The notes beneath the pieces are model-generated. The model ran no database searches and was not told where the DNA came from. It was given only the letters and a program-made list of their open reading frames with translations. DNA of 64,000 bases from an uncultured Candidatus Saccharibacteria bacterium (GTDB lineage: Bacteria; Patescibacteriota; Minisyncoccia; Phycocordibacterales; Zambryskibacteraceae), in the NCBI GenBank assembly GCA_964608585.1, contig CAZSOL010000001.1, positions 168,290-232,289 of the forward strand, given 5' to 3'. This document shows positions 26,736 to 35,392 of this stretch, one piece after another. The number at the start of each line of letters is the position of its first letter. Positions within the stretch are counted from its first letter, which is position 1. Position numbers and translations under genes: made by a program.

Positions 26736-27350
26736 CTATCTTGTCAAGAGTCTGGCCAACCAGCCAAATAGGCTAAAGTTACCTTCGTTATCCTCTATGA
26801 ACTTCTGTAGTCTCTCTCTTTCAGTCTCAAGAGTCACTATCTCAGCTCTTATCGTCTCCTGCTCAAAGGGGATGAGCTTCTCAACCTCTCTACCGAGTGA
26901 GGCTATCCTTGCATCCATCTTTACAAGCTCACTTCTTATCATTCCAAGGTTTTTGTAATCAGTACCAATCAAGAAAGTCTTGAACTCATTCCTCTCCTCT
27001 ACCCTCTCCACAGCTCGAGCTATGTCTTCGGAAGAGCTGGCTTGCTCACGAGCTATCTTCCTTATCTCCTCACCGATACCACCGTTCCTGTCAGCGATGT
27101 ATAAAAGTCTCTCTACAGCTTCGGCAACCTCACTTCTATGCTCTGTGCCTCTGCCTCTGGTCTCAGTTTCTACCTCAACTTCAAGCTCAGGCTCGTCCGC
27201 TTCTTCTTCCTGCTCTGTCCTTACTTCTTGTCTTACTTCTTGGAAGACCTCACGTCCACGAAGCTCACCTCCTTGAGCAAAAACGTCAGAAGCAATAAAG
27301 AACAAGGCCAAAGATAGAGACAAGACCCAAATAGAATTATGCTTTTTCAT
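26736..27350 (-). CDS. secreted coiled-coil protein of unknown function
   Basis: Signal peptide, an E/R-rich low-complexity stretch, then helical repeats. Confidence 0.45.
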   Translation of the reverse strand: MKKHNSIWVLSLSLALFFIASDVFAQGGELRGREVFQEVRQEVRTEQEEEADEPELEVEVETETRGRGTEHRSEVAEAVERLLYIADRNGGIGEEIRKIAREQASSSEDIARAVERVEERNEFKTFLIGTDYKNLGMIRSELVKMDARIASLGREVEKLIPFEQETIRAEIVTLETERERLQKFIEDNEGNFSLFGWLARLLTR

Positions 27351-27391: not shown

Positions 27392-28207
27392 CTACCTTAA
27401 ACCTGTATCACAAAAGACTATGACCTCTGTGTACTCGTTTATCTCAACGGGGATAAGGCCATTCTGCCCACACTCTGTCTTGCCATTAACCTTTTGGGCC
27501 GAGTTGATCATATACTCTCCAGGAGACGCTGTTATGCTAAAGCTCCCATCTGACTTAGAAGAGAAGCGTTTTATCACCGCAAGACTTTTGAAGTCTATAA
27601 GTAGGAGCTCTGTCTGATACAACTTATCTGCACAGGCGGGATCGTCTCTCTCTGTCTTTCCTTCACAAGTTGGACCGAGCCTCACTACCCCCTTAATACC
27701 ACCAGTAGCAAATTTGAGTGTCTTAAGAATTTTGGCCAAGTCTTTCCTTATGACATCCTCTTTCGTTATATAAGTTACAGAAATATGGATAATGGAGTTG
27801 TTGTAAGAGTAAACATAGTTATCGGAAACATAAAGTCCATCAGCTGTGTAGAAAATTCCATCCATATCTCCGAGCTCCACACCCTTATACCCATCCATCC
27901 TTAGGTCATAGTTTGAGACTGGATTAGACTTAGCCCAAGTTTGAGGGGTGGCCGTCTGCCCTTTGTAAAAAACAAGGTTAATAGCTGTAGGACCTTCAGA
28001 ATTCTCTACAACAGCAGTGTCTTCTATTAGAGTTAGCACCTTCTGCCCACTCCCCTCGTCTCTCTCTGTAAGAGTGTATTTGTCAGGATAGCTAAAGCTT
28101 ATGCCTAGCTCGCTAGAGTCATACTTCTTCATTGGACCAGCAGAGCTAAGTACCCAAATGAGAGCAATGGTACCGACAACTCCTAATATTGTTATAAATT
28201 TGTTCAT
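27392..28207 (-). CDS. secreted hypothetical protein with C-terminal Cys-containing domain
   Basis: Signal/TM N-terminus, 271 aa, no recognisable domain. Confidence 0.45.
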   Translation of the reverse strand: MNKFITILGVVGTIALIWVLSSAGPMKKYDSSELGISFSYPDKYTLTERDEGSGQKVLTLIEDTAVVENSEGPTAINLVFYKGQTATPQTWAKSNPVSNYDLRMDGYKGVELGDMDGIFYTADGLYVSDNYVYSYNNSIIHISVTYITKEDVIRKDLAKILKTLKFATGGIKGVVRLGPTCEGKTERDDPACADKLYQTELLLIDFKSLAVIKRFSSKSDGSFSITASPGEYMINSAQKVNGKTECGQNGLIPVEINEYTEVIVFCDTGLR

Positions 28208-28818
28208 TCTATTAACTTTCTTAACTCTGGTCTTACTCTATCGGCTATAAGCTTATAGCCGGAGTCGTTGGGATGTATCGTATCATACATAAGATCTGGC
28301 TGACCAAAGACTCCATCTAAAACATCTGGTACGTACGCAGTGCCAAACTCTTCTGCCAAACGCTTGAACTCCCTGTCATGCCTGTTGCTCAGTACCCCAC
28401 TCCTCACACCAAGTAGTAGCACTACTGCTCCACGTCTCTGCACTTCTTGGATAATTTGCGAGAGATTGGAGAAGGTCTCTGTCTCCGGCACCTTCCTTAG
28501 GAAGTCGTTACCGCCGAGAAGGACTATAACCACCTTCGGATCATAAGCATCAAGCTCTTCTATACGGGCCAAGGCATCTCTTGTGGTGTTGCCACTCACT
28601 CCTAGGTTTATAACTCTCTCACCCAAGAGATCTACAAAACCACCACTGTTTGAGCCTACTCCAGCCACTAGACTATCACCAAAGGCGATAATATCTCTAC
28701 CTTGTGATGGGTAGTTAGTTATCTCCCTTTCGCCCCAAGCTAAAAGTAGCAACCCTAAGACAAGGGCTGTGACTACTATAACTAGAAGTGTTTTTTTATG
28801 AGAGGTGCTTACCAACAA
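28204..28818 (-). CDS. SGNH/GDSL hydrolase family protein, secreted
   Basis: Signal/TM, IIAFGDSLVAGVGS (block I with catalytic Ser), GGNDFL (block III) and a DxxH C-terminal block. Confidence 0.7.
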   Translation of the reverse strand: MLVSTSHKKTLLVIVVTALVLGLLLLAWGEREITNYPSQGRDIIAFGDSLVAGVGSNSGGFVDLLGERVINLGVSGNTTRDALARIEELDAYDPKVVIVLLGGNDFLRKVPETETFSNLSQIIQEVQRRGAVVLLLGVRSGVLSNRHDREFKRLAEEFGTAYVPDVLDGVFGQPDLMYDTIHPNDSGYKLIADRVRPELRKLIE

Positions 28819-29140
28819 GTTTAGTCATGTCAAACATAGAGACAGTCTTCTTGCCTCCGAAGACTACCTTTAGCTTATCATCTGCATTGATGTTCCTTCT
28901 GTTCTTTTGGTCTTGGAGCTTATTCTTCTTTATATAAGCCCAGAGCTTCTTTGTTACCTCTGTTCTTGGCATAGGACCCTTACCTATAACAAGTCCGAGA
29001 TCTGCACTTATCTTCATCGGCTTCATGAAGGCTGGATTCGCCTTTCTAACTTTCTTTTTTGTCTTAGTAACTTTTTTTGCAACTTTCTTCACGGCTTTCT
29101 TCATCACCTTCTTTGCTGTCTTTTTTGCTTTCTTTGCCAT
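28796..29140 (-). CDS. SWIB/MDM2 domain protein with Lys-rich histone H1-like N-terminal tail
   Basis: First 30 aa MAKKAKKTAKKVMKKAVKKVAKKVTKTKKKVRK. The C-terminal ~80 aa match the SWIB pattern (P..L..VIG.....R.EV.KKLW.YIK...LQD..N.R.I..D..L..VFG). Confidence 0.65.
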   Translation of the reverse strand: MAKKAKKTAKKVMKKAVKKVAKKVTKTKKKVRKANPAFMKPMKISADLGLVIGKGPMPRTEVTKKLWAYIKKNKLQDQKNRRNINADDKLKVVFGGKKTVSMFDMTKLVGKHLS

Positions 29141-29185
29141 CTTAATTATTTAACTTCTATGGCCTTTAGTATAACAGAAGAAAAG

Positions 29186-29875
29186 TTACTTCCAGTTGTT
29201 CTTCTTCAAAGCATCTCTTGCGGCCTCTTGCTCGGCGTCTTGCTTGCTCTTACCCTCACCTACTCCCATCTTCTCATCTCCAACGAAGACTCCAACGGTA
29301 AAGTATTTGTCGTGGTCTGGCCCAGATTCGCTAAGAGTTTTGTACATTGGAGTCTGGCTCAAAACTTCTTGAGCCTTAGACTGGAAGAGACTCTTCGCAT
29401 CTATCCAAGAACCACTCTCTACTATGTCATCTGCTAACGGAGTAATGTTCTTCAAGATAAACTTCTCTGCTTCGGCAAAGCCTTGGTCCAAATGTATGGC
29501 TCCGATGATAGCCTCAAGAGTATTGGCCAAGATGTACTGTCTAGCACGTCCCACGTCTTTGGACTCCCCTTTTGATAAAAGCAGGTAATCATTGACCCCA
29601 AGCTTTTGTGCCACGGAGCTACAGGTATCAGCATTGACCAAGGCTGATCGGACGGCAGTAAGCTCACCCTCGTCCATGTTGGGGAACTTTTTGAAAAGGA
29701 AGTTTGTAGTTACAAGCTGAAGCACAGCATCACCCAAGTACTCCAAGCGCTCGTTATGAGACATACCGGAGGACCTGTTCTCGTTTATATATGACCTATG
29801 GGTGAAGGCCTGCTTAAAGAGGTTCTTGTTCTTAAAGTTTAGGCCTAGAGCCTCTTCAAATTTATTGAAATCCAT
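29186..29875 (-). CDS. rnc: ribonuclease III
   Basis: ERLEYLGDAVL signature plus a C-terminal dsRBD. Confidence 0.9.
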   Translation of the reverse strand: MDFNKFEEALGLNFKNKNLFKQAFTHRSYINENRSSGMSHNERLEYLGDAVLQLVTTNFLFKKFPNMDEGELTAVRSALVNADTCSSVAQKLGVNDYLLLSKGESKDVGRARQYILANTLEAIIGAIHLDQGFAEAEKFILKNITPLADDIVESGSWIDAKSLFQSKAQEVLSQTPMYKTLSESGPDHDKYFTVGVFVGDEKMGVGEGKSKQDAEQEAARDALKKNNWK

Positions 29876-29884
29876 ATCTTAGAG

Positions 29885-30811
29885 TTAACCAGTTTGAGCC
29901 AACTTTTGCAAAGCCTTAGTAACGATGGGTAAGATGTCGTCGTAGAAGTTGAGGTCAAGGATGTCAGCTAGTCTAAACCACCTCACATCGTCCAAGCCCC
30001 CCTTCTCCTCCTTCTTCTCAAGAGTTAACTCTTGGTAAGGCGCCTCAGCGAGAAAGTAAGTAACCTGCTTCTTGATCTTGCCCTTCTCTGGATGGAAGGT
30101 GGTGTAGGCGTTCTCTCCCAACTTCTCCTTTATTTGTATAGGCACACCAAGCTCCTCCTCTGCTTCGCGAACAAGGCACTCCTCCTCCGTCTCCTTACCC
30201 TCAAGTTTGCCCTTAGTTAGGGTCCAGTGGCCGAAGATGTCATGGACCAGAGCAAGATACGTCTCTCCATTATCGTGTGCATAAACCACCGCGCCAGCCA
30301 ACCTCTCTAAAGGAAGCTCGGAGTCAGGGACGTTGCCGTACTTCTTCTTCGGCTTTGGTTGGTCGTCCTTACCCGGCTCACCCATTTCTCGGTACACAGC
30401 TCCAAGAACCCCGTTTACAAATCTCCCGCTAGTCTCACCACCGAAGGACTTTGCTAGCTCTATAGCTTCGTTAATAGCAACCTTAGGAGGCACCTCCTTC
30501 CTGTCAGCAAAGAGGAGCTCGGCTAGCCCCATACGCAAAATGTTTCTGTCTACTATAGATATCTTCTCTATCGGCCAGTCTGGGGCCGCCTTCTCTATGA
30601 TATTGTCTAGGTCTGTCTTCTTGTCTACTACGTTTTTGAGCAAATGCTCCATGAAGGGCTTATCTTTCGTCTCTGGAGCAAACTCCTTAGCAGTTCTATG
30701 AAAAATTTCTAAAACATCTATATCGCTCTTCGCCTTGCCAGAAGACAAGTCGAAGTCCCATTCGAAAAGCGTCTGCAATACAACGGAGCGCGAAAGATGT
30801 CTGTGTGACAT
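29885..30811 (-). CDS. nusB: NusB antitermination factor fused to a C-terminal NUDIX hydrolase domain
   Basis: Residues 1-140 are NusB-like (RSVVLQTLFEWDF...RFVNGVLGAV). Residues ~175-300 carry a Nudix box GKLEGKETEEECLVREAEEELGV. Confidence 0.7.
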   Translation of the reverse strand: MSHRHLSRSVVLQTLFEWDFDLSSGKAKSDIDVLEIFHRTAKEFAPETKDKPFMEHLLKNVVDKKTDLDNIIEKAAPDWPIEKISIVDRNILRMGLAELLFADRKEVPPKVAINEAIELAKSFGGETSGRFVNGVLGAVYREMGEPGKDDQPKPKKKYGNVPDSELPLERLAGAVVYAHDNGETYLALVHDIFGHWTLTKGKLEGKETEEECLVREAEEELGVPIQIKEKLGENAYTTFHPEKGKIKKQVTYFLAEAPYQELTLEKKEEKGGLDDVRWFRLADILDLNFYDDILPIVTKALQKLAQTG

Positions 30812-30830
30812 AGGTTAAAGAACTGTTGAT

Positions 30831-30989
30831 CTAGACCTTACGGCCTCGATACTCACCCGTCTTAGGGTGTGCGCGGTGACGCAAACGTGTCGCACCGCTT
30901 TTGTCCACGGTCAAAGCTGGCTTCTCTAGTGCATGATGAGAGCGCCTGTTTGCTGTATGCGCCCTTGTGTGTCTCATTCGTACAACCAT
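30831..30989 (-). CDS. rpmF: 50S ribosomal protein bL32
   Basis: 52-aa ORF, too short to appear in the track. MVVRMRHTRAHTANRRSHHALEKPALTVDKSGATRLRHRAHPKTGEYRGRKV matches bL32 (RRSH.AL..P.L..D...G...L.H......G.YRGRKV). Confidence 0.75.
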   Translation of the reverse strand: MVVRMRHTRAHTANRRSHHALEKPALTVDKSGATRLRHRAHPKTGEYRGRKV

Positions 30990-30999
30990 GTAGCCATAT

Positions 31000-31069
31000 T
31001 ACCAGCTTTTTAAGAAAAAGAAAGCCCCGCTACCCTAAGGGGAGCAGAGCTCTCTTAAGGTAGCGGGGC
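31000..31069 (-). terminator. putative terminator of the NUDIX gene (long-loop hairpin plus T-rich tract)
   Basis: 11-bp stem GCCCCGCTACC...GGTAGCGGGGC (31024..31069) with a 24-nt loop, 3 nt after the stop codon. On the minus strand it is followed by TTCTTTTTCTT. Confidence 0.45.
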
Positions 31070-31072
31070 ACG

Positions 31073-31540
31073 TTATTCCGGCACGTTCTCATGCAGAAGC
31101 TTGCCAGCCTCAAGCAGAGGAGCTTGATGTGTTGGATAGAGACGATGGCAAGCAGTCTCGAAGTCAACCCAATACGGAGGTGACATCCAGTCCCCATCAA
31201 TCGTCTTCTCAACCAGACGAAGTTCCCCCAGAAGCACGAAGGATGGGATGAGGAAGAAGTTCTTGGTGTGCCCAGGGATTTCCTTGATCCAGATCACTTC
31301 CGGAACGTACTCCTCAGGCAACCTGAGGTCTGTCTCCTCAGTGAGTTCACGACGTAGAGTGCCAAGCATGTCTCGATCCTCCTCCGCGTGACCTTCTTCC
31401 GTACCACCGATGAACTTCGTCTGCATCGGCTTGTGTGTGTACTTCGGATGCAGAGACTTCGTGTCGATGACAAGAAGTTCAACCATCCCATCGAACTCGT
31501 TCTCGCGATATATGATCGCGCCTGCATAACGCTCAGCCAC
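31073..31540 (-). CDS. NUDIX hydrolase
   Basis: Nudix box GGTEEGHAEEDRDMLGTLRRELTEETDL. GC content appears higher than the surrounding genes. Confidence 0.7.
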   Translation of the reverse strand: MAERYAGAIIYRENEFDGMVELLVIDTKSLHPKYTHKPMQTKFIGGTEEGHAEEDRDMLGTLRRELTEETDLRLPEEYVPEVIWIKEIPGHTKNFFLIPSFVLLGELRLVEKTIDGDWMSPPYWVDFETACHRLYPTHQAPLLEAGKLLHENVPE

Positions 31541-31600
31541 AAGGCCTCCTCGATTAAAAATGTGCGAGCAGGCAAAATGCCTTCTCTACCCTTAATTATA

Positions 31601-32200
31601 CTATACTTTACTCCCCTTTGTCAAGTTCTTAAGAAAGCTTCTTCGGTGTGAGCCTACTAAGCCGTATTTCTTGATAGCCTCTCTATGCACCAAGGTCCCG
31701 TACCCCTTATGTACCTCAAACTTGTACTCTGGGTGCTTCTCCCCAAGCTTCTTCATATACTTGTCTCGCATAACCTTCGCACATATGGAGGCGAGTGAGA
31801 TTATAGGTATCTTCTCATCTCCCTTAACCACAGTGAGTTGGTGCTTGAACTCCTCTCCCGCCTTGATCCCACCGTCTAGAAATATCTGCGAGTCAGTCGT
31901 TGAGACCTCAAGTCTCTCAAGCACACGCTTAATGCCGAGTCTTATAGCATAAGCAATCCCGTGCCTGTCTATCACCCTCTCCGACACAAGAGCCACGTGA
32001 TAGTTGAGCTCGCCTCTCTTCTTCCCCTCCTTAGCTAAGGCAAACCACAAGTCTCTCTCTGACTCACTTAACTTCTTGGAGTCTTGTATCCCCCTCCAAA
32101 ACTTCTTCTCAAAGCCTTCCTCCACTCTTACCCCACCGATAGCCACAGGCCCTGCTAGTGGTCCTCTCCCCGCCTCGTCTATGCCTACAATATGAGTCAT
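31601..32200 (-). CDS. rnhB: ribonuclease HII
   Basis: VGIDEAGRGPLAGPV N-terminal motif and the RNase HII fold pattern. Confidence 0.9.
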   Translation of the reverse strand: MTHIVGIDEAGRGPLAGPVAIGGVRVEEGFEKKFWRGIQDSKKLSESERDLWFALAKEGKKRGELNYHVALVSERVIDRHGIAYAIRLGIKRVLERLEVSTTDSQIFLDGGIKAGEEFKHQLTVVKGDEKIPIISLASICAKVMRDKYMKKLGEKHPEYKFEVHKGYGTLVHREAIKKYGLVGSHRRSFLKNLTKGSKV

Positions 32201-32236
32201 TAGTTAGTCGTGTACCACTATATTATACTTATAGAA

Positions 32237-35200
32237 ATGAGTAAGTTTACCCACCTACATACCCACTCCCATTACTCTCTCCTTGAGGCCCTACCCAAGA
32301 TCCCCGACTTAGTAGCCAGAGCCAAGAAGCACGGTATGGAAGCCCTTGCACTCACCGACTCAGGCAACTTATACGGTGCTATAGAGTTCTACAAAGAGTG
32401 TAAGGACGCTGATATCAAGCCCATCATCGGCGTGGATGCATACATTGCTCCAAGGACACGCCACGACAAGGAGGCGCGAGTAGATGCCTCTCGTACTCGC
32501 TTGGTCCTCTTAGTAGAGAACATGCAGGGTTATAAAAATCTTTTGAAGTTGGTGTCCCTCTCCTACCTTGAGGGCTTCTACTACAAGCCAAGGATGGATA
32601 AAGAAATACTAGGAAAGTACAAGGAAGGTCTCATCGCTATTCTCCCTTCCTTCAACAACACCGACCTTGAGGAGCAAGCTCTCTGGTACAAGCAAACCTT
32701 CAAGGACAAGTTCTTCCTTGAGATCACTCACCACGAGGAGATAGCCAACCATGAGGACAAGCAGAGAGAGCGTATAGCCCTAGCCAAGAAGATCGGAGTG
32801 CCAATAGTTGCAGGACACGACGTCTACTACCTCTCACCCGACGACAGACCGGCTCGTGAGACAGTACTCTCTATACAATCGCACCTAGGCATCGGTCGAG
32901 GGAGAGGCTTTAACGACGAGGAGGACGACTTCTCCTTCATCTCGCCTCAAGATGCAGAGAAGAAGTTCAAGAATACTCCCGAAGCAATAGAAAATGTGGA
33001 GAAGATTGTGGAGATGTGTAACCTAGAGCTCAAACTTGGTGAGTGGGTCTTCCCCAACCTTGAGATCCCTAGTGGCAAAACTGCTGAAGAGGCTCTGCGT
33101 GAGATTGTGGAAGCAGGCCTTCTAAGAAGAAAATTGGAGAAGACAAAGGAGGTGGAAGACAGGATAGAGTATGAGCTCAAAGTCATAAACGATAAGGGTT
33201 ACCCCAAGTACTTCCTTGTAGTGTCGGACCTCCTACGCTTCGCCCACGAGAACGGAATACTAACAAACATCAGAGGTTCTGTGGCGGGCTCACTCGTCAC
33301 CTACCTTGCTGGGATTACTAACGTGAACCCTCTAGAGTACAAGCTCCCCTTTGAGCGCTTCCTTAACCCAGACCGCCCCTCCGCACCAGATATAGATATG
33401 GACTTCGCCGACAACAGGAGAGACGAGGTTATTGAGTATGCTAGACAGAAGTATGGCCGAGACCACGTCGCACAAATAGGTACCTTCGGTACCATGATGG
33501 CTCGTGGCGCAGTGAGAGACGTCACTCGCGCGATGGGCTTACCCGTCTCACTCGGCGATAAGATAGCGAAGCTCATACCAATGGGAGCGCAAGGCTTCCC
33601 GATGACTATCAAGCGCGCTAAGAAGGAGAGTCCCGACTTCAAAAAACTTTATGATTCCGATCCCGAAGTCAAAAGAGTTGTAGACATGGCCGAGAAGATA
33701 GAGGGCAACGCCCGCCACATCTCGGTCCACGCTGCAGGGGTCGTCATCTCCCCCACTCCTCTCACCGACTACACAGCACTCCAGTACGACACCAAGGGAG
33801 AGCAGAAGGTCATCACTCAGTATGATATGTACTCTATAGAGGAAGCAGGTCTACTCAAATTTGACTTCCTCGGGATAAGGAACCTCTCTATCATCGCCGA
33901 TGCTATAGCTCGTATAAAAAAGATTGAGGGAGTAGATATAGATGTGGAAGAGATACCAATAGATGATAAGTTGACCTTTGAGATGCTTGCTCGTGGAGAG
34001 ACGGAGGGCACCTTCCAGATGAACGGTCAGGGTATGACGAAGGCCTTAATGGAGTTGAAGCCCACTGTCATCCACGACATCAACGTCATGGTGGCTCTCT
34101 ACCGCCCAGGGCCGATGGATAACATCCAAGAGTACATCCTAAGGAAACATGGCAAGCGACCTGTCACCTTCCTTCATCCAAAGATGAAGGACTTCTTAGA
34201 CACCACTTACGGTGTGCTCGTCTACCAAGACGACCTCCTCATGACCGCTATAGAAGTAGCTGGTTACTCGTGGGGCGAGGTGGACAAGTTCCGTAAAGCC
34301 GTGGGCAAGAAGATCCCCGAGGAAATGAAGAAGCAACACGTAATGTTTGTGGAAGGATGTCAGAAGCATGGAGGTATGAGCAAGGATAAGGCTGAGGCAC
34401 TCTGGGAGCTCTTCGTCCCCTTCCAAGGATACGGATTCAACAAGGCGCATGCCGCAAGCTACGGACATGTGGCCTACATCACCGCATACCTCAAGGCCAA
34501 CTATCCTGCTATATATATGTCAGCAGTACTTACAGCAGAAAGTGGAGATGTAGAGACTATCGGAGTAATGGTTAGGGAGTGCAAGAGGATGGGTATAGAT
34601 GTACTTCCTCCATCGGTTAACGAAAGCTTCTCACAATTTACTGTACCCCCAAGAGGAAACAAGAGTGAGAAGTATAAGATCCGCTTCGGACTTGTAACTA
34701 TCAAGAACTTCGGCCAAGGTGTCGCTACATCCATCATTGAGGAGAGGAAGAAGAATGGACCCTTCAAGTCTTTGCTAGATTTCCTAGAGAGAGTAAAGGA
34801 TAAAAATTTGAACAAAAAGTCTCTAGAGTCTCTCATCAAGGCCGGTGCCTTAGACGAGTTTGAAGACCGAGGCAAGATGCTTGCTAACCTAGACAAACTC
34901 CTCGCTTATCACAAGGAGGCAAGCTCTAAGGCGGAGCACCAAGACTCACTCTTCGGCATCTTTGAGGACAAGAGTGCCTTACCAACACTAAAGCTCGATG
35001 AGTCAGAACCTATAAAGGAGAAGGAGAAGCTCTTCTGGGAGAAGGAGCTCCTCGGCCTCTACATCTCAGGTCACCCACTTATGGAGCACCAAGAGAAGCT
35101 CTCAAAGGCCAAGGTAACGAGTGCCAACTTCAAAGACACGCCGGAGGGAGCAGAGATCATCCTTGCAGGCATCGTTGGCGAGGTTAGAAACAACATGACC

Positions 35201-35392
35201 AAGAGTGGAGAGATGATGGCCTTCGTGAAGCTTGAGGACTTAAACGGGAGCGTGGATATGGTCGTCTTCCCCCGAGTCTATGAGGAGTACAAAGAGTTCC
35301 TCCAAGGAGACCAGTGTATAGCGGTGAAGGGCAGAGTGAACAAGAGGAACGGCGAGCTCAGCTTCGTTGTGGAGAAGATAAAGTCATTATAG
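32237..35392 (+). CDS. dnaE: DNA polymerase III alpha subunit DnaE
   Basis: PHP domain FTHLHTHSHYSLLEA, then polymerase core, HhH and OB domains. The start may instead be the upstream ATG at 32210. Confidence 0.9.
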   Translation: MSKFTHLHTHSHYSLLEALPKIPDLVARAKKHGMEALALTDSGNLYGAIEFYKECKDADIKPIIGVDAYIAPRTRHDKEARVDASRTRLVLLVENMQGYKNLLKLVSLSYLEGFYYKPRMDKEILGKYKEGLIAILPSFNNTDLEEQALWYKQTFKDKFFLEITHHEEIANHEDKQRERIALAKKIGVPIVAGHDVYYLSPDDRPARETVLSIQSHLGIGRGRGFNDEEDDFSFISPQDAEKKFKNTPEAIENVEKIVEMCNLELKLGEWVFPNLEIPSGKTAEEALREIVEAGLLRRKLEKTKEVEDRIEYELKVINDKGYPKYFLVVSDLLRFAHENGILTNIRGSVAGSLVTYLAGITNVNPLEYKLPFERFLNPDRPSAPDIDMDFADNRRDEVIEYARQKYGRDHVAQIGTFGTMMARGAVRDVTRAMGLPVSLGDKIAKLIPMGAQGFPMTIKRAKKESPDFKKLYDSDPEVKRVVDMAEKIEGNARHISVHAAGVVISPTPLTDYTALQYDTKGEQKVITQYDMYSIEEAGLLKFDFLGIRNLSIIADAIARIKKIEGVDIDVEEIPIDDKLTFEMLARGETEGTFQMNGQGMTKALMELKPTVIHDINVMVALYRPGPMDNIQEYILRKHGKRPVTFLHPKMKDFLDTTYGVLVYQDDLLMTAIEVAGYSWGEVDKFRKAVGKKIPEEMKKQHVMFVEGCQKHGGMSKDKAEALWELFVPFQGYGFNKAHAASYGHVAYITAYLKANYPAIYMSAVLTAESGDVETIGVMVRECKRMGIDVLPPSVNESFSQFTVPPRGNKSEKYKIRFGLVTIKNFGQGVATSIIEERKKNGPFKSLLDFLERVKDKNLNKKSLESLIKAGALDEFEDRGKMLANLDKLLAYHKEASSKAEHQDSLFGIFEDKSALPTLKLDESEPIKEKEKLFWEKELLGLYISGHPLMEHQEKLSKAKVTSANFKDTPEGAEIILAGIVGEVRNNMTKSGEMMAFVKLEDLNGSVDMVVFPRVYEEYKEFLQGDQCIAVKGRVNKRNGELSFVVEKIKSL

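Follow-up and report, generated by a model that had tools for sequence, protein, structure and literature searches.

To our knowledge, NusB and the rRNA antitermination complex belong to the core, near-universal machinery of bacteria, and they are understood almost entirely from Escherichia coli. One subunit of this complex, SuhB, has an enzyme fold (PMC6614797, PMC6614801), and its role in growth is independent of its action as a phosphatase (PMC4807359). Nudix enzymes are known to act on RNA 5' ends: the NpnN caps found on bacterial RNA are removed by the Nudix protein RppH (PMC7044304, PMC8833179), and the Ap4A hydrolase NUDT2 trims PPP-RNA to P-RNA (PMC8616924).

The gene analysed here, nusB::nudix, encodes a NusB extended by a Nudix domain (Table 1). 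A search of the literature found no paper describing a NusB-Nudix fusion, only incidental co-occurrences. The protein can be likened to several known systems, in part by analogy only. Like SuhB in the E. coli complex rrnTAC, which is functionally coupled to RNase III processing and in which catalysis by SuhB is apparently dispensable, it would place an enzyme fold in a NusB-containing rRNA complex; but there is no homology between the two (inositol monophosphatase fold versus Nudix), and SuhB is a separate dimer that is not fused to NusB. The functional analogy with the regulators NrtR and AraR is that a degenerate Nudix fold serves as the ligand-binding module of a transcription factor, although those are winged-helix DNA-binding repressors acting at promoters, whereas the partner of the Nudix domain here is an RNA-binding elongation factor. 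RsmB/Sun is a precedent for a NusB-type RNA-binding domain joined to an enzyme acting on rRNA; in RsmB, however, the cell's NusB is a different protein, of which the NusB-like domain is a paralogue, the enzyme is a methyltransferase, and RsmB models score far below their cut-offs here (54 bits versus 319).

A NusB protein with a C-terminal Nudix domain

The gene lies in a 64-kb window, by which we mean the whole stretch of DNA that was analysed. Its N-terminal part matches the Pfam NusB family over residues 7-141 (PF01029, 117.5 bits against a cut-off of 23.1) and the NCBIfam equivalog TIGR01951 (124.8 bits, cut-off 88.35). In the AlphaFold2 (AF2) model, helices span residues 2-143, with TM-scores in Foldseek of 0.87-0.88 to Aquifex NusB in the NusB-NusE-BoxA complexes 3r2c/3r2d and of 0.80-0.84 to 1tzv/1tzt. 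A phmmer search matched all solved NusB proteins, including chains of the E. coli antitermination complexes. It has the same all-helical fold as the E. coli and Aquifex proteins of NusB-NusE-BoxA complexes, and the N-terminal R-x-x-x-R ... LQxLF/YxW motif is conserved. RsmB/Sun was considered and rejected, as its models reach 20-54 bits against cut-offs of 269-540 and the match covers the NusB part only. Judged by these profile matches, the N-terminal part is a bona fide NusB, probably that of the organism, and from its family membership it would be expected to bind BoxA and S10 (NusE). Within the 64-kb window neither a second NusB-like sequence nor an rRNA operon or BoxA was found.

The fusion adds ca. 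165 C-terminal residues, linker and Nudix domain together, which none of the matched solved NusB proteins has. Residues 174-289 match the Pfam NUDIX family (PF00293, 54.3 bits, cut-off 21.1), and the model shows a beta-grasp with helices at 168-307, to which many Nudix structures were matched at a Foldseek probability of 1.00. The original prediction of a NusB part, a linker and a complete Nudix domain with an intact box is thus borne out by Pfam and TIGR01951 and by the positions of GEPGKDDQPKPKKKYGNVPDSELP and GKLEGKETEEECLVREAEEELGV. The linker begins with a fairly conserved GEPGK, while in the family alignment its remainder is Lys-rich and variable in length. As the pLDDT of linker residues 145-159 is below 50 and the pTM of the whole model is 0.50, the two domains are, as modelled, independent and flexibly tethered. 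The Nudix domain is acidic (computed pI 4.96), which counts against extensive contact with the body of an RNA. The exact protein (P0001) is present in both NCBI and Logan and lies on a contig of 238 kb. Public annotation at NCBI names the fused proteins plain "NusB", so that the extra domain is hidden.

Table 1. Features of the nusB::nudix locus, with positions given in the window
Feature	Position	Strand	Evidence
nusB::nudix fused CDS, 308 aa + stop	29885..30811	-	Single uninterrupted ORF; Pfam NusB and NUDIX both above cut-off
NusB domain, aa 1-143, all-helical	30383..30811	-	TIGR01951, AF2 helices, Foldseek, phmmer
Flexible linker, aa 144-167, GEPGKDDQPKPKKKYGNVPDSELP	30311..30382	-	Translation and low pLDDT
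Nudix-fold domain, aa 168-308, Ap4A/ApnA-hydrolase-like	29888..30310	-	Pfam, family profile, Foldseek
Nudix box GX5EX7REUXEEXGU, aa 201-223, intact, GKLEGKETEEECLVREAEEELGV	30143..30211	-	Translation
Variable block, ca. aa 195-235, REAxEE versus RKVPLE	30107..30229	-	Sliding-window identity between sister genomes
rpmF (bL32)	30831..30989	-	Directly upstream of the fusion, 19-bp gap; Pfam and TIGR01031, 38.8 bits
rnc (RNase III)	29186..29875	-	Directly downstream of the fusion, 9-bp gap; Pfam Ribonucleas_3_3, Ribonuclease_3, dsrm
Second, divergent Nudix-family gene, 155 aa	31073..31540	-	Pfam NUDIX 17.2 bits, below the cut-off of 21.1
Perfect sigma-70 consensus promoter TTGACA-18-TATAAT before the second Nudix gene	31595..31624	-	12/12 matches
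Terminator-like hairpin between the second Nudix gene and rpmF, 16-bp stem and U-run	31011..31069	-	Folding energy

Distribution of the fusion and conserved gene order

The fused architecture was present in all of the 120 closest proteins (NCBI, JGI, ENA and Logan) and in the 80 species-representative loci inspected (80/80), it is encoded by at least 597 species-representative genomes of the ultra-small Parcubacteria/Paceibacterota, and it is kept down to ca. 32% identity. Two entries, P0233 (on a 695-bp contig) and P0250 (which begins inside the linker), were left out as fragments. The coupling had been called unusual, and relative to model bacteria it is; but, as these sequences indicate, the fused form is the normal state of nusB throughout a class-level lineage and not a quirk of one genome, and its conservation in relatives, proposed as a check, was found in both sets. 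Standalone NusB proteins occur in other lineages (P0199 and P0201, the neighbours of P0201 being unrelated), and a standalone copy of the Nudix domain (P0258) was found in the context of a mobile element. A Rosetta-stone search of other lineages for adjacent but split nusB and nudix genes found none.

The gene for bL32 lies directly upstream of the fusion on the same strand in 79/80 loci, and rnc directly downstream, also on the same strand, in 78/80. The order rpmF, nusB::nudix, rnc persists at 36% identity together with a degenerate box (locus L092). This conserved order may partly reflect a general conservation of synteny in small genomes. In E. coli, by contrast, nusB follows ribE (ribH). 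The original prediction placed rpmF and a second Nudix gene downstream of the fusion; rpmF does adjoin it, but the genes are on the minus strand, and both therefore lie upstream in the direction of transcription. No strand had been given, and the conserved downstream partner, rnc, had been missed.

Assignment of the Nudix domain

A profile of the family matched the Ap4A hydrolase aq_158 (3i7u) from end to end with an E-value of 6.4e-24, followed by CT771 (4.8e-16), Ndx1 (1.1e-15), NUDT2 (6.7e-14) and the C. elegans Ap4A hydrolase (1kt9, 9e-14), the Dcp2 decapping enzymes coming later, at about 1e-11 to 1e-12. In Foldseek the top match was again 3i7u (TM 0.84-0.85), and the Nudix regulators NrtR and AraR were also matched (TM 0.41-0.63). 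The best profile and fold matches are therefore Ap4A/ApnA hydrolases (aq_158, NUDT2, the C. elegans enzyme, CT771, Thermus Ndx1 and mycobacterial MutT1/Rv2985), and it is with these, as indicated by profile and predicted fold, that the Nudix domain belongs, and not with RppH or NudC. This departs from the candidates that had been put forward for a subfamily check, namely RppH/NudC-like decapping enzymes or ADP-ribose/8-oxo-dGTP types.

The domain shares with Ap4A hydrolases a W-x-x-(P/S)-K-G start of the box, an aromatic residue ca. 13 positions past the box and a second aromatic in the region of the C-terminal helix. WTLTKG at 196-201 aligns with WSFPKG, HWGFPKG, WVFPKG and HWTPPKG of these enzymes, with P replaced by S or T, and Y236 and Y290 align with Y/Y in aq_158 and with Y/F in NUDT2. 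From the structures of the C. elegans and human Ap4A hydrolases, we take the Lys of WxxPKG to be phosphate-binding and the two aromatics to sandwich the base. These roles of Tyr and Lys in the fusion are assigned by alignment and from the literature on Ap4A hydrolases, and not from a ligand-bound structure. The family differs from Ap4A hydrolases in being fused to NusB, in its invariant HDxFG and GGLDD and in that about two thirds of its members are without at least one catalytic glutamate. The motifs that are conserved in the family outside the box and absent from Ap4A hydrolases are HDxFG (190-194), GGLDD (271-275) and the LNFYDDILP region.

Other subfamilies were tried and rejected. The Nudix enzymes RppH and NudC have RNA 5' ends as substrates (ppp, Np4 and NAD caps), but their curated models are far below cut-off here: the RppH models (NF001936, PRK00714) score 18.7-20.8 bits against 118, and the NudC model (NF001299) scores 15.9 against 158, the 308-aa protein having neither the zinc ribbon nor the N-terminal domain of NudC. 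All curated models of the MutT and ADP-ribose subfamilies are likewise far below their cut-offs. The protein is also not of the NrtR/AraR type, as the winged-helix DNA-binding domain is missing and NusB is the only other domain.

Decay of the catalytic box and conservation of binding positions

Conservation was computed over 137 diverse fused proteins. The three glutamates of REx2EE, all present in the window protein (GKLEGKETEEECLVREAEEELGV), are not generally kept across the family: 45/137 proteins have the full triad, 92/137 are missing at least one glutamate, and 40/137 keep one or none. By residue, retention is 39% for E216, 72% for R215 and E219, 74% for E207 and 88% for E220. Unexpectedly, conservation within the Nudix domain is thus lowest in the catalytic box. 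Parsimony requires at least 24 changes. Two proteins (P0240 and P0228) have no recognisable box at all and nevertheless keep the fusion, and where visible the gene order too. Some Nudix enzymes tolerate non-canonical boxes, and boxes with a single substitution (e.g. RK..EE) may keep some activity.

By contrast, W196, K200, Y236, W278 and Y290 are 91-96% conserved in the same 137 proteins (K200 96%, Y236 91%, Y290 95%), and positions in this range correspond, in the alignment, to the WxxPKG motif and to the two aromatics of Ap4A hydrolases. Because the catalytic box decays while the residues aligned to substrate-binding positions stay at least 91% conserved, the Nudix domain probably acts across the family as a binding or scaffolding element at the complex of rRNA antitermination and RNase III. 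Since only about one third of the family keeps the full glutamate triad, the fusion cannot have been conserved for the sake of hydrolysis. In the subgroup to which the window protein belongs the situation is different, as E216, E219 and E220 are kept in 83/83 canonical sequences; this complete conservation argues that catalysis is retained in the window protein, and hydrolysis is probably a property of its lineage. A transcription factor coupled to a pyrophosphohydrolase, as originally described, thus agrees with the intact box found here, but is too simple a description of the family.

Possible role of the Nudix domain

The explanation that we favour, and to which we would give slightly less than an even chance, is that the protein is a NusB with a tethered Ap4A/ApnA-type Nudix module whose conserved job is binding, hydrolysis being optional. 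The fusion would be expressed from the conserved rpmF-nusB::nudix-rnc string, and its NusB part, together with S10, would dock on BoxA in the pre-rRNA leader. The disordered linker of ca. 25 residues could then hold the Nudix module close to RNA polymerase, to the 5' leader and to the site of RNase III processing, where the module may bind a purine nucleoside polyphosphate; candidate ligands are a free ApnA/NpnN-type molecule and the 5' end of the nascent leader, carrying ppp or an Np4 cap. The complex might in addition gain stability from such binding, as it does in E. coli from SuhB, itself of an enzyme fold, and antitermination or RNase III processing may be affected too. Hydrolysis would be an optional extra, probably kept where the box is intact, as in the lineage of the window, and lost or remodelled in most others.

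It can also be the case, although we consider it unlikely, that the domain is an obligate tethered enzyme and that the variant boxes are active. NusB would then bring an RppH-like or decapping pyrophosphohydrolase to the nascent pre-rRNA leader, whose ppp- or Np4-capped 5' end the enzyme would convert to a monophosphate; once released by RNase III, the leader would thereby be degraded and NusB recycled. The intact box and the invariant glutamates of the 83 canonical subgroup sequences agree with this explanation, as do the relatives of the domain (Ap4A hydrolases first, then Dcp2), the action of NUDT2 and RppH on RNA 5' ends (PMC8616924, PMC8833179), the conservation of rnc immediately downstream and the precedent of RsmB, in which a NusB-like domain delivers an enzyme to rRNA and whose models weakly match the NusB part. 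Nevertheless, one or more of the three metal-binding glutamates are missing from 92/137 proteins, and two or all three from 40, P0240 and P0228 remain fused, with their gene order where visible, after losing any recognisable box, RppH models stay at 18-21 bits against a cut-off of 118, and the Nudix domain is acidic.

A low probability is likewise assigned to a pure scaffold analogous to SuhB, in which the Nudix fold would be a docking surface that stabilises the assembly of NusB, S10, NusA, NusG and RNA polymerase, with a vestigial pocket and neither ligand nor RNA end. The precedent of SuhB, the repeated decay of the box in a domain that is retained, and the family-specific surface motifs outside the box (HDxFG, GGLDD and the LNFYDDILP region), which are conserved here and not in Ap4A hydrolases, would all be in agreement with it. 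A vestigial pocket would, however, be expected to drift, but the positions aligned to the phosphate-binding Lys and the base-stacking aromatics (K200, Y236, Y290) are among the most conserved, and canonical boxes are clearly constrained in some clades.

It is very unlikely that the fusion is incidental, a house-cleaning Ap4A/NTP pyrophosphatase gene having joined the neighbouring nusB in some compact ancestral genome, with two halves that work independently. The flexible linker and the lack of a predicted inter-domain interface (pTM 0.50) would be expected from such an event, and both the standalone NusB proteins of other lineages and the domain copy on a mobile element are compatible with it; but the fusion is kept in at least 597 species and down to ca. 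32% identity, it has been retained after a decay of the catalytic motif that a house-cleaning enzyme would not survive, a conserved GEPGK opens the linker, and no split adjacent arrangement of nusB and nudix was found. As for a sequencing or assembly frameshift joining two genes, the event that would have undone the original prediction, nothing was found in its favour and its probability is practically nil, the same architecture having been recovered from four independent data sources in 120/120 closest proteins and in 80/80 loci.

The favoured explanation, binding with optional hydrolysis, bears on a very large uncultivated lineage in which an Ap4A-hydrolase-type module has become a permanent part of NusB and has stayed beside RNase III. 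Were the module to bind dinucleoside polyphosphates or RNA 5' ends, alarmone or 5'-cap status would be linked directly to ribosome synthesis, and SuhB would be joined by a second, independent case of an enzyme fold taken up into the antitermination complex as an accessory subunit. Moreover, with glutamates lost repeatedly and binding residues kept, the family provides a natural series in which to follow how an enzyme becomes a pseudoenzyme.

Two forms of the catalytic block

Sister genomes differ in carrying either the canonical REAxEE or a conserved degenerate RKVPLE. Among the relatives of the window protein, the close P0051 is of the RKVPLE type, and P0171 is a deep member with a degenerate box. 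A sliding-window comparison of two pairs (L084/L085 and L089/L091) showed that identity drops, to 0.33-0.6, only in the block of ca. aa 195-235, and the history of this cassette is incongruent with dnaE, rnc and rnhB. A single origin of RKVPLE was rejected, as the genomes of both pairs are sisters by independent markers and differ in type. Recombination versus in-situ convergence was addressed by comparing 4-fold synonymous sites, which are near saturation: in one pair the counts were 2/11 inside the block versus 45/96 outside, and in the other 6/14 versus 34/83. Tree-based counts on this question lose weight because sequences outside the block are so highly conserved.

A broader reading, which we regard as improbable as a whole, would take the Nudix module for a hitherto unrecognised, lineage-specific subunit of the rRNA machinery that reads the nucleotide-polyphosphate state (alarmones of the ApnA/NpnN type in free form, or whether the nascent rRNA carries ppp or an Np4 cap at its 5' end) and couples it both to the transcription of rRNA and to its processing by RNase III, in organisms from which SuhB may be absent. 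The block of ca. 40 residues would then exist in two long-lived forms, a hydrolytic REAxEE and a non-hydrolytic RKVPLE, exchanged or re-evolved repeatedly between sister species. If this were true, the two forms would constitute a natural on/off polymorphism of catalysis in an essential transcription factor.

The second Nudix gene

The gene upstream of rpmF had been described as an independent second Nudix gene. Its independence is supported by a promoter of its own, which is the sole promoter-like site in 28000-32400, and by a terminator-like hairpin (minimum free energy -42 kcal/mol, z = -4.81, 0/200 shuffles equally stable). Its product scores below the Pfam NUDIX cut-off (Table 1) and, on sequence comparison, is a Nudix relative only via homology to better-scoring orthologues, with 25-40% identity to genes that occupy this slot in other genomes and score 29-52 bits. 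An initial tblastn search detected the gene in 4/80 loci, and the use of a family HMM raised this to 10/77. It is present in 5/35 loci with an intact triad and in 5/42 with a degenerate one (Fisher p = 1.0), and a function as partner of the fusion, or as a stand-in for lost catalysis, was rejected on these counts. Its occurrence in 10/77 loci, the lack of a link to the state of the box and the separate promoter and terminator show that the second Nudix gene is a patchy, fast-evolving unit of its own and no conserved partner of the fusion.

Extent of the fusion

As originally predicted, a NusB and a Nudix domain are encoded by one ORF: in Pfam searches of the fused ORF both lie far over their gathering scores, NusB with 117.5 bits over aa 7-141 and NUDIX with 54.3 bits over aa 174-289, and the protein scores 124.8 bits against the NCBIfam nusB equivalog TIGR01951 (cut-off 88.35). 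The linker and the Nudix box quoted in that prediction are found in the translation letter for letter. The motif at the linker start (E-M/L-G-E-P-G-K, aa 142-148) is 65-88% conserved across fused proteins and absent from three standalone NusB proteins of related lineages (P0199, P0201 and P0244); judged from these alignments, it may be a fusion-specific hinge or contact motif.

PF01029 and PF00293 occurred together in all of the 120 best matches from a collection of 5.8 billion proteins (drawn from NCBI, JGI, ENA and Logan assemblies; identity 72-100%, length 287-331 aa), which the source annotation, where it gave a name, called only "transcription antitermination factor NusB". When each GTDB species was scanned through one genome, at least 597 fusion loci were confirmed. 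The best 80 all align over residues 1 to ~305, at 54-79% identity, and among their names are Parcubacteria, Paceibacterota, and Zambryski-, Nomura-, Kaiser-, Lloyd- and Vogelbacteria. A library clustered at 50% identity yielded 138 representatives at E <= 1e-30, ~60 of them full-length fusions with identity as low as ~32%. The fusion is therefore conserved in related genomes, and its presence in the 120 best matches and in these loci rules out the frameshift artefact by which it was to be refuted. Many metagenome-assembled TPA genomes titled 'uncultured Candidatus Saccharibacteria bacterium' carry the locus (L003-L007 and many others); among the matches listed, all informatively named records with it are Parcubacteria/Paceibacterota, and the label Saccharibacteria may be unspecific or mistaken here.

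Both halves belong to well-known families, and public domain annotations already show the architecture; a full-text literature search found no paper describing or discussing a NusB-Nudix fusion. Its interest lies in its breadth, in its place in the machinery of rRNA transcription and processing, and in an enzyme-to-pseudoenzyme pattern that opens a binding or regulatory role to direct test.

Gene neighbourhood

Along the direction of transcription, the window cluster reads rnhB, a small divergent Nudix gene, rpmF, nusB::nudix, rnc, a SWIB-domain gene and a GDSL hydrolase gene, with dnaE upstream in divergent orientation. The rpmF gene and the second Nudix gene had been described as lying downstream of the fusion, but the fusion is transcribed from the minus strand, so that both are upstream; its true downstream neighbour, overlooked at first, is rnc. 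Of 80 loci, 79 have bL32 next to the fusion on its upstream side and 78 have RNase III next to it on its downstream side, both on the same strand as the fusion; the remaining loci are truncated at contig ends. Longer loci share a wider order: gyrB, an aminoacyl-tRNA synthetase gene, dnaE(-), rnhB, a variable slot, rpmF, the fusion, rnc, smc, RNase R, rpsP, a KH protein gene and trmD. The rpmF-fusion-rnc-smc order is kept even in L092, a locus whose fusion is 36% identical and has a degenerate Nudix box.

Features of the fusion locus in the window
Feature	Position	Strand	Remarks
dnaE ORF as listed	32210-35392	+	GTG start giving MYHYIILIEMSKFTHLH
rnhB	32200..31601	-	first in transcription order of the cluster
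rnhB-rpmF slot	31073-31624	-	variable region
second, small divergent Nudix gene	31540..31073	-	Pfam NUDIX 17.2 bits, under cut-off
rpmF/bL32	30989..30831	-	directly 5' of nusB::nudix
nusB::nudix	30811..29885	-	single unbroken 308-aa ORF, ATG start
linker-start motif	30368-30388	-
rnc/RNase III	29875..29186	-	start 9 bp past fusion stop
SWIB/MDM2-domain gene	28796-29140	-	directly past rnc; Pfam SWIB, 100 bits
GDSL-type hydrolase ORF	28204-28818	-	TTG start; 23-nt overlap with 3' end of SWIB gene
ORF with signal-peptide-like N-terminus	26736-27350	-	extremely Glu-rich repeats (EVRQEVRTEQEEEADEPELEVEVETE)

Structure and subfamily

In an AF2 model of the fused protein (mean pLDDT 81), residues 2-143 form an all-helical NusB domain and residues 168-307 a Nudix domain of alpha/beta/alpha type, whereas pLDDT stays <50 in the linker (145-159). 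A pTM of 0.50 indicates that the two domains have no fixed arrangement. In Foldseek searches the NusB part superposes on Aquifex NusB of NusB-NusE-BoxA complexes (TM 0.87-0.88), and its sequence matches all solved NusB proteins, including chains of E. coli antitermination complexes. The top Foldseek match of the Nudix part was Aquifex aq_158 (TM 0.84-0.85); next came C. elegans Ap4A hydrolase, mycobacterial MutT1/Rv2985, Ndx1, CT771 and NUDT2. Consistently, a profile built from 36 diverse domains of the family matched aq_158 end to end (E 6.4e-24), then CT771 (5e-16), Ndx1 (1e-15), NUDT2 (7e-14) and C. elegans Ap4A hydrolase (9e-14), and Dcp2 and MutT1 near 1e-11 to 1e-12. Every model of the RppH, NudC, MutT and ADP-ribose subfamilies fell well under its curated cut-off. 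The fused domain is of the Ap4A-hydrolase type, Ap4A/ApnA hydrolases being closest by both profile and fold, and not of the RppH/NudC type with decapping function that had been put forward as a candidate.

Catalytic box and nucleotide pocket

Within the fused Nudix domain, conservation is lowest in the catalytic box. Among 137 diverse fused proteins, conservation in the box is 39% for E216, 72% for R215 and E219, 74% for E207, 76% for G222 and 88% for E220, and reaches 91-96% at G173, D191, F193, W196, T197, K200, Y236, W278 and Y290. Three REx2EE glutamates are kept in 45 of these proteins, two in 52, one in 33 and none in 7, and at least 24 parsimony changes in box state are required on a tree made without the box columns. 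The canonical RE[AV]xEELG box is present in 83 of the 120 close homologues, and ~35 carry RKVP[LIM]E[IL]G, which is itself conserved and lacks two of the three glutamates; deep members such as P0228 and P0240 are still fused and have no recognisable Nudix box. W196/K200/G201, Y236 and Y290 align to the WxxPKG motif and two aromatic positions of Ap4A hydrolases, which, in the C. elegans and human structures, we take to bind the phosphate chain and to sandwich the adenine.

What the family conserves thus looks, from its alignments, like a nucleotide-binding pocket and surface motifs specific to the family (HDxFG, GGLDD, LNFYDD), and does not resemble conserved catalytic chemistry. Since the pocket residues are conserved and the catalytic glutamates are not, we favour a putative binding module as the primary role of the domain, with hydrolysis varying between lineages. 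Two points count against it: the domain is acidic (pI 4.96), and single-substitution box variants may keep some activity. All 83 sequences of the canonical subgroup to which the window protein belongs have the three glutamates, so that catalysis has probably been kept in this lineage.

Some lineages (L010-L013, L015, L019, L024, L032, L034 and L060) have a 5-residue insertion in the GX5E loop (e.g. GKIGDSPEIANET...REIKEE) and keep REx2EE. P0258 (L081, 4001-4453) is a standalone 150-aa Nudix copy, 47% identical to the window domain, with a canonical REAQEELG box; its neighbours, a phage-type integrase, a DNA methylase and a Phage_rep_O-like gene, suggest that it lies on a mobile element or prophage.

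Box types in sister genomes

On NusB-domain trees, canonical and degenerate types resemble shuffled labels (29 changes versus a shuffled mean of 31.5), and tree signal for box type is confined to the segment adjoining the box. These trees are weak, as the regions outside the divergent block are too conserved, and flanking genes were therefore taken as independent markers. L084 (degenerate) and L085 (canonical) belong to sister genomes (dnaE 84%, rnhB 77% identical) whose fusions are 94% identical outside the block and only 55% inside aa 199-251; likewise, those of the sisters L089 (degenerate) and L091 (canonical; dnaE 86%, rnc 91%) are 89% identical outside and 62% inside. The block has sharp limits, ~aa 195-235, and degenerate blocks of unrelated genomes show 72-75% mutual identity. 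In the test of block exchange by recombination against repeated in-situ change, synonymous sites were near saturation.

Proposed role

Together with S10, NusB would bind the BoxA of the pre-rRNA leader and seed assembly of the rRNA antitermination complex, and the ~25-residue disordered linker would hold the Nudix module near RNA polymerase, the 5' end of the leader and the RNase III site. The module would chiefly bind, hydrolysis being a lineage-variable extra; its ligand would be a purine nucleoside polyphosphate, either a free ApnA/NpnN-type nucleotide or the ppp-/Np4-capped 5' end of the leader, and binding may add to the stability of the complex. Catalytically degenerate Nudix domains serve as ligand sensors in the transcription regulators NrtR and AraR, both among the Foldseek matches of the fused domain, and provide a precedent for such a binding module. 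A precedent for an enzyme fold serving in the rRNA antitermination complex is SuhB, a subunit of that of E. coli whose growth phenotype does not depend on its phosphatase activity (PMC4807359; PMC6614797, PMC6614801). The E. coli complex is functionally coupled to RNase III processing, which offers a reason for nusB lying beside rnc.

Bacterial RNAs are capped by dinucleoside polyphosphates, which are taken off by the Nudix enzyme RppH (PMC7044304, PMC8833179), and NUDT2, an Ap4A hydrolase, trims PPP-RNA (PMC8616924); both are further precedents for elements of the proposed role. Alternatively, the fused domain could be an obligate tethered 5'-end hydrolase, which we consider unlikely in view of the lost glutamates. 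A pure protein scaffold with a vestigial pocket, to which the members devoid of a box would conform, is doubtful to a similar degree, the pocket residues being conserved. An incidental fusion is very improbable for so widespread an architecture.

Second Nudix gene and other features of the locus

The small Nudix gene had been regarded as an independent second NUDIX gene. Nudix homology holds through same-slot genes elsewhere, which are 25-40% identical and score 29-52 bits; its own Pfam score does not reach the cut-off. It has a perfect sigma-70 consensus promoter of its own and ends in a strong terminator (hairpin and U-run, -42 kcal/mol, z = -4.8). Of 77 loci searched with a family HMM, only 10 have the gene, and its presence is not associated with the box state of the fused domain (Fisher p = 1.0). 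The gene is patchily distributed and evolves fast, and it is no conserved partner of the fusion.

The slot was compared in L001, L011, L026, L047, L053, L084, L086, L088, L089 and L091. Some genomes have a standalone Nudix gene there, of a family that evolves fast (25-40% identical from genome to genome) and whose window copy has a loop insertion and a G->D change in its box; in L085, L087 and L090 the slot holds unrelated genes of ~200 and 317 aa without a Pfam match. The SWIB domain is more familiar from eukaryotic chromatin remodellers and Chlamydiae; the window protein has a very Lys-rich N-terminal tail, and in L084 and L086-L091 smc occupies its place directly past rnc. Finally, the conserved PHP-domain start MSKFTHLHTHS points to an internal ATG 9 codons downstream as the likely true start of dnaE, which would lengthen the divergent intergenic region shared with rnhB.
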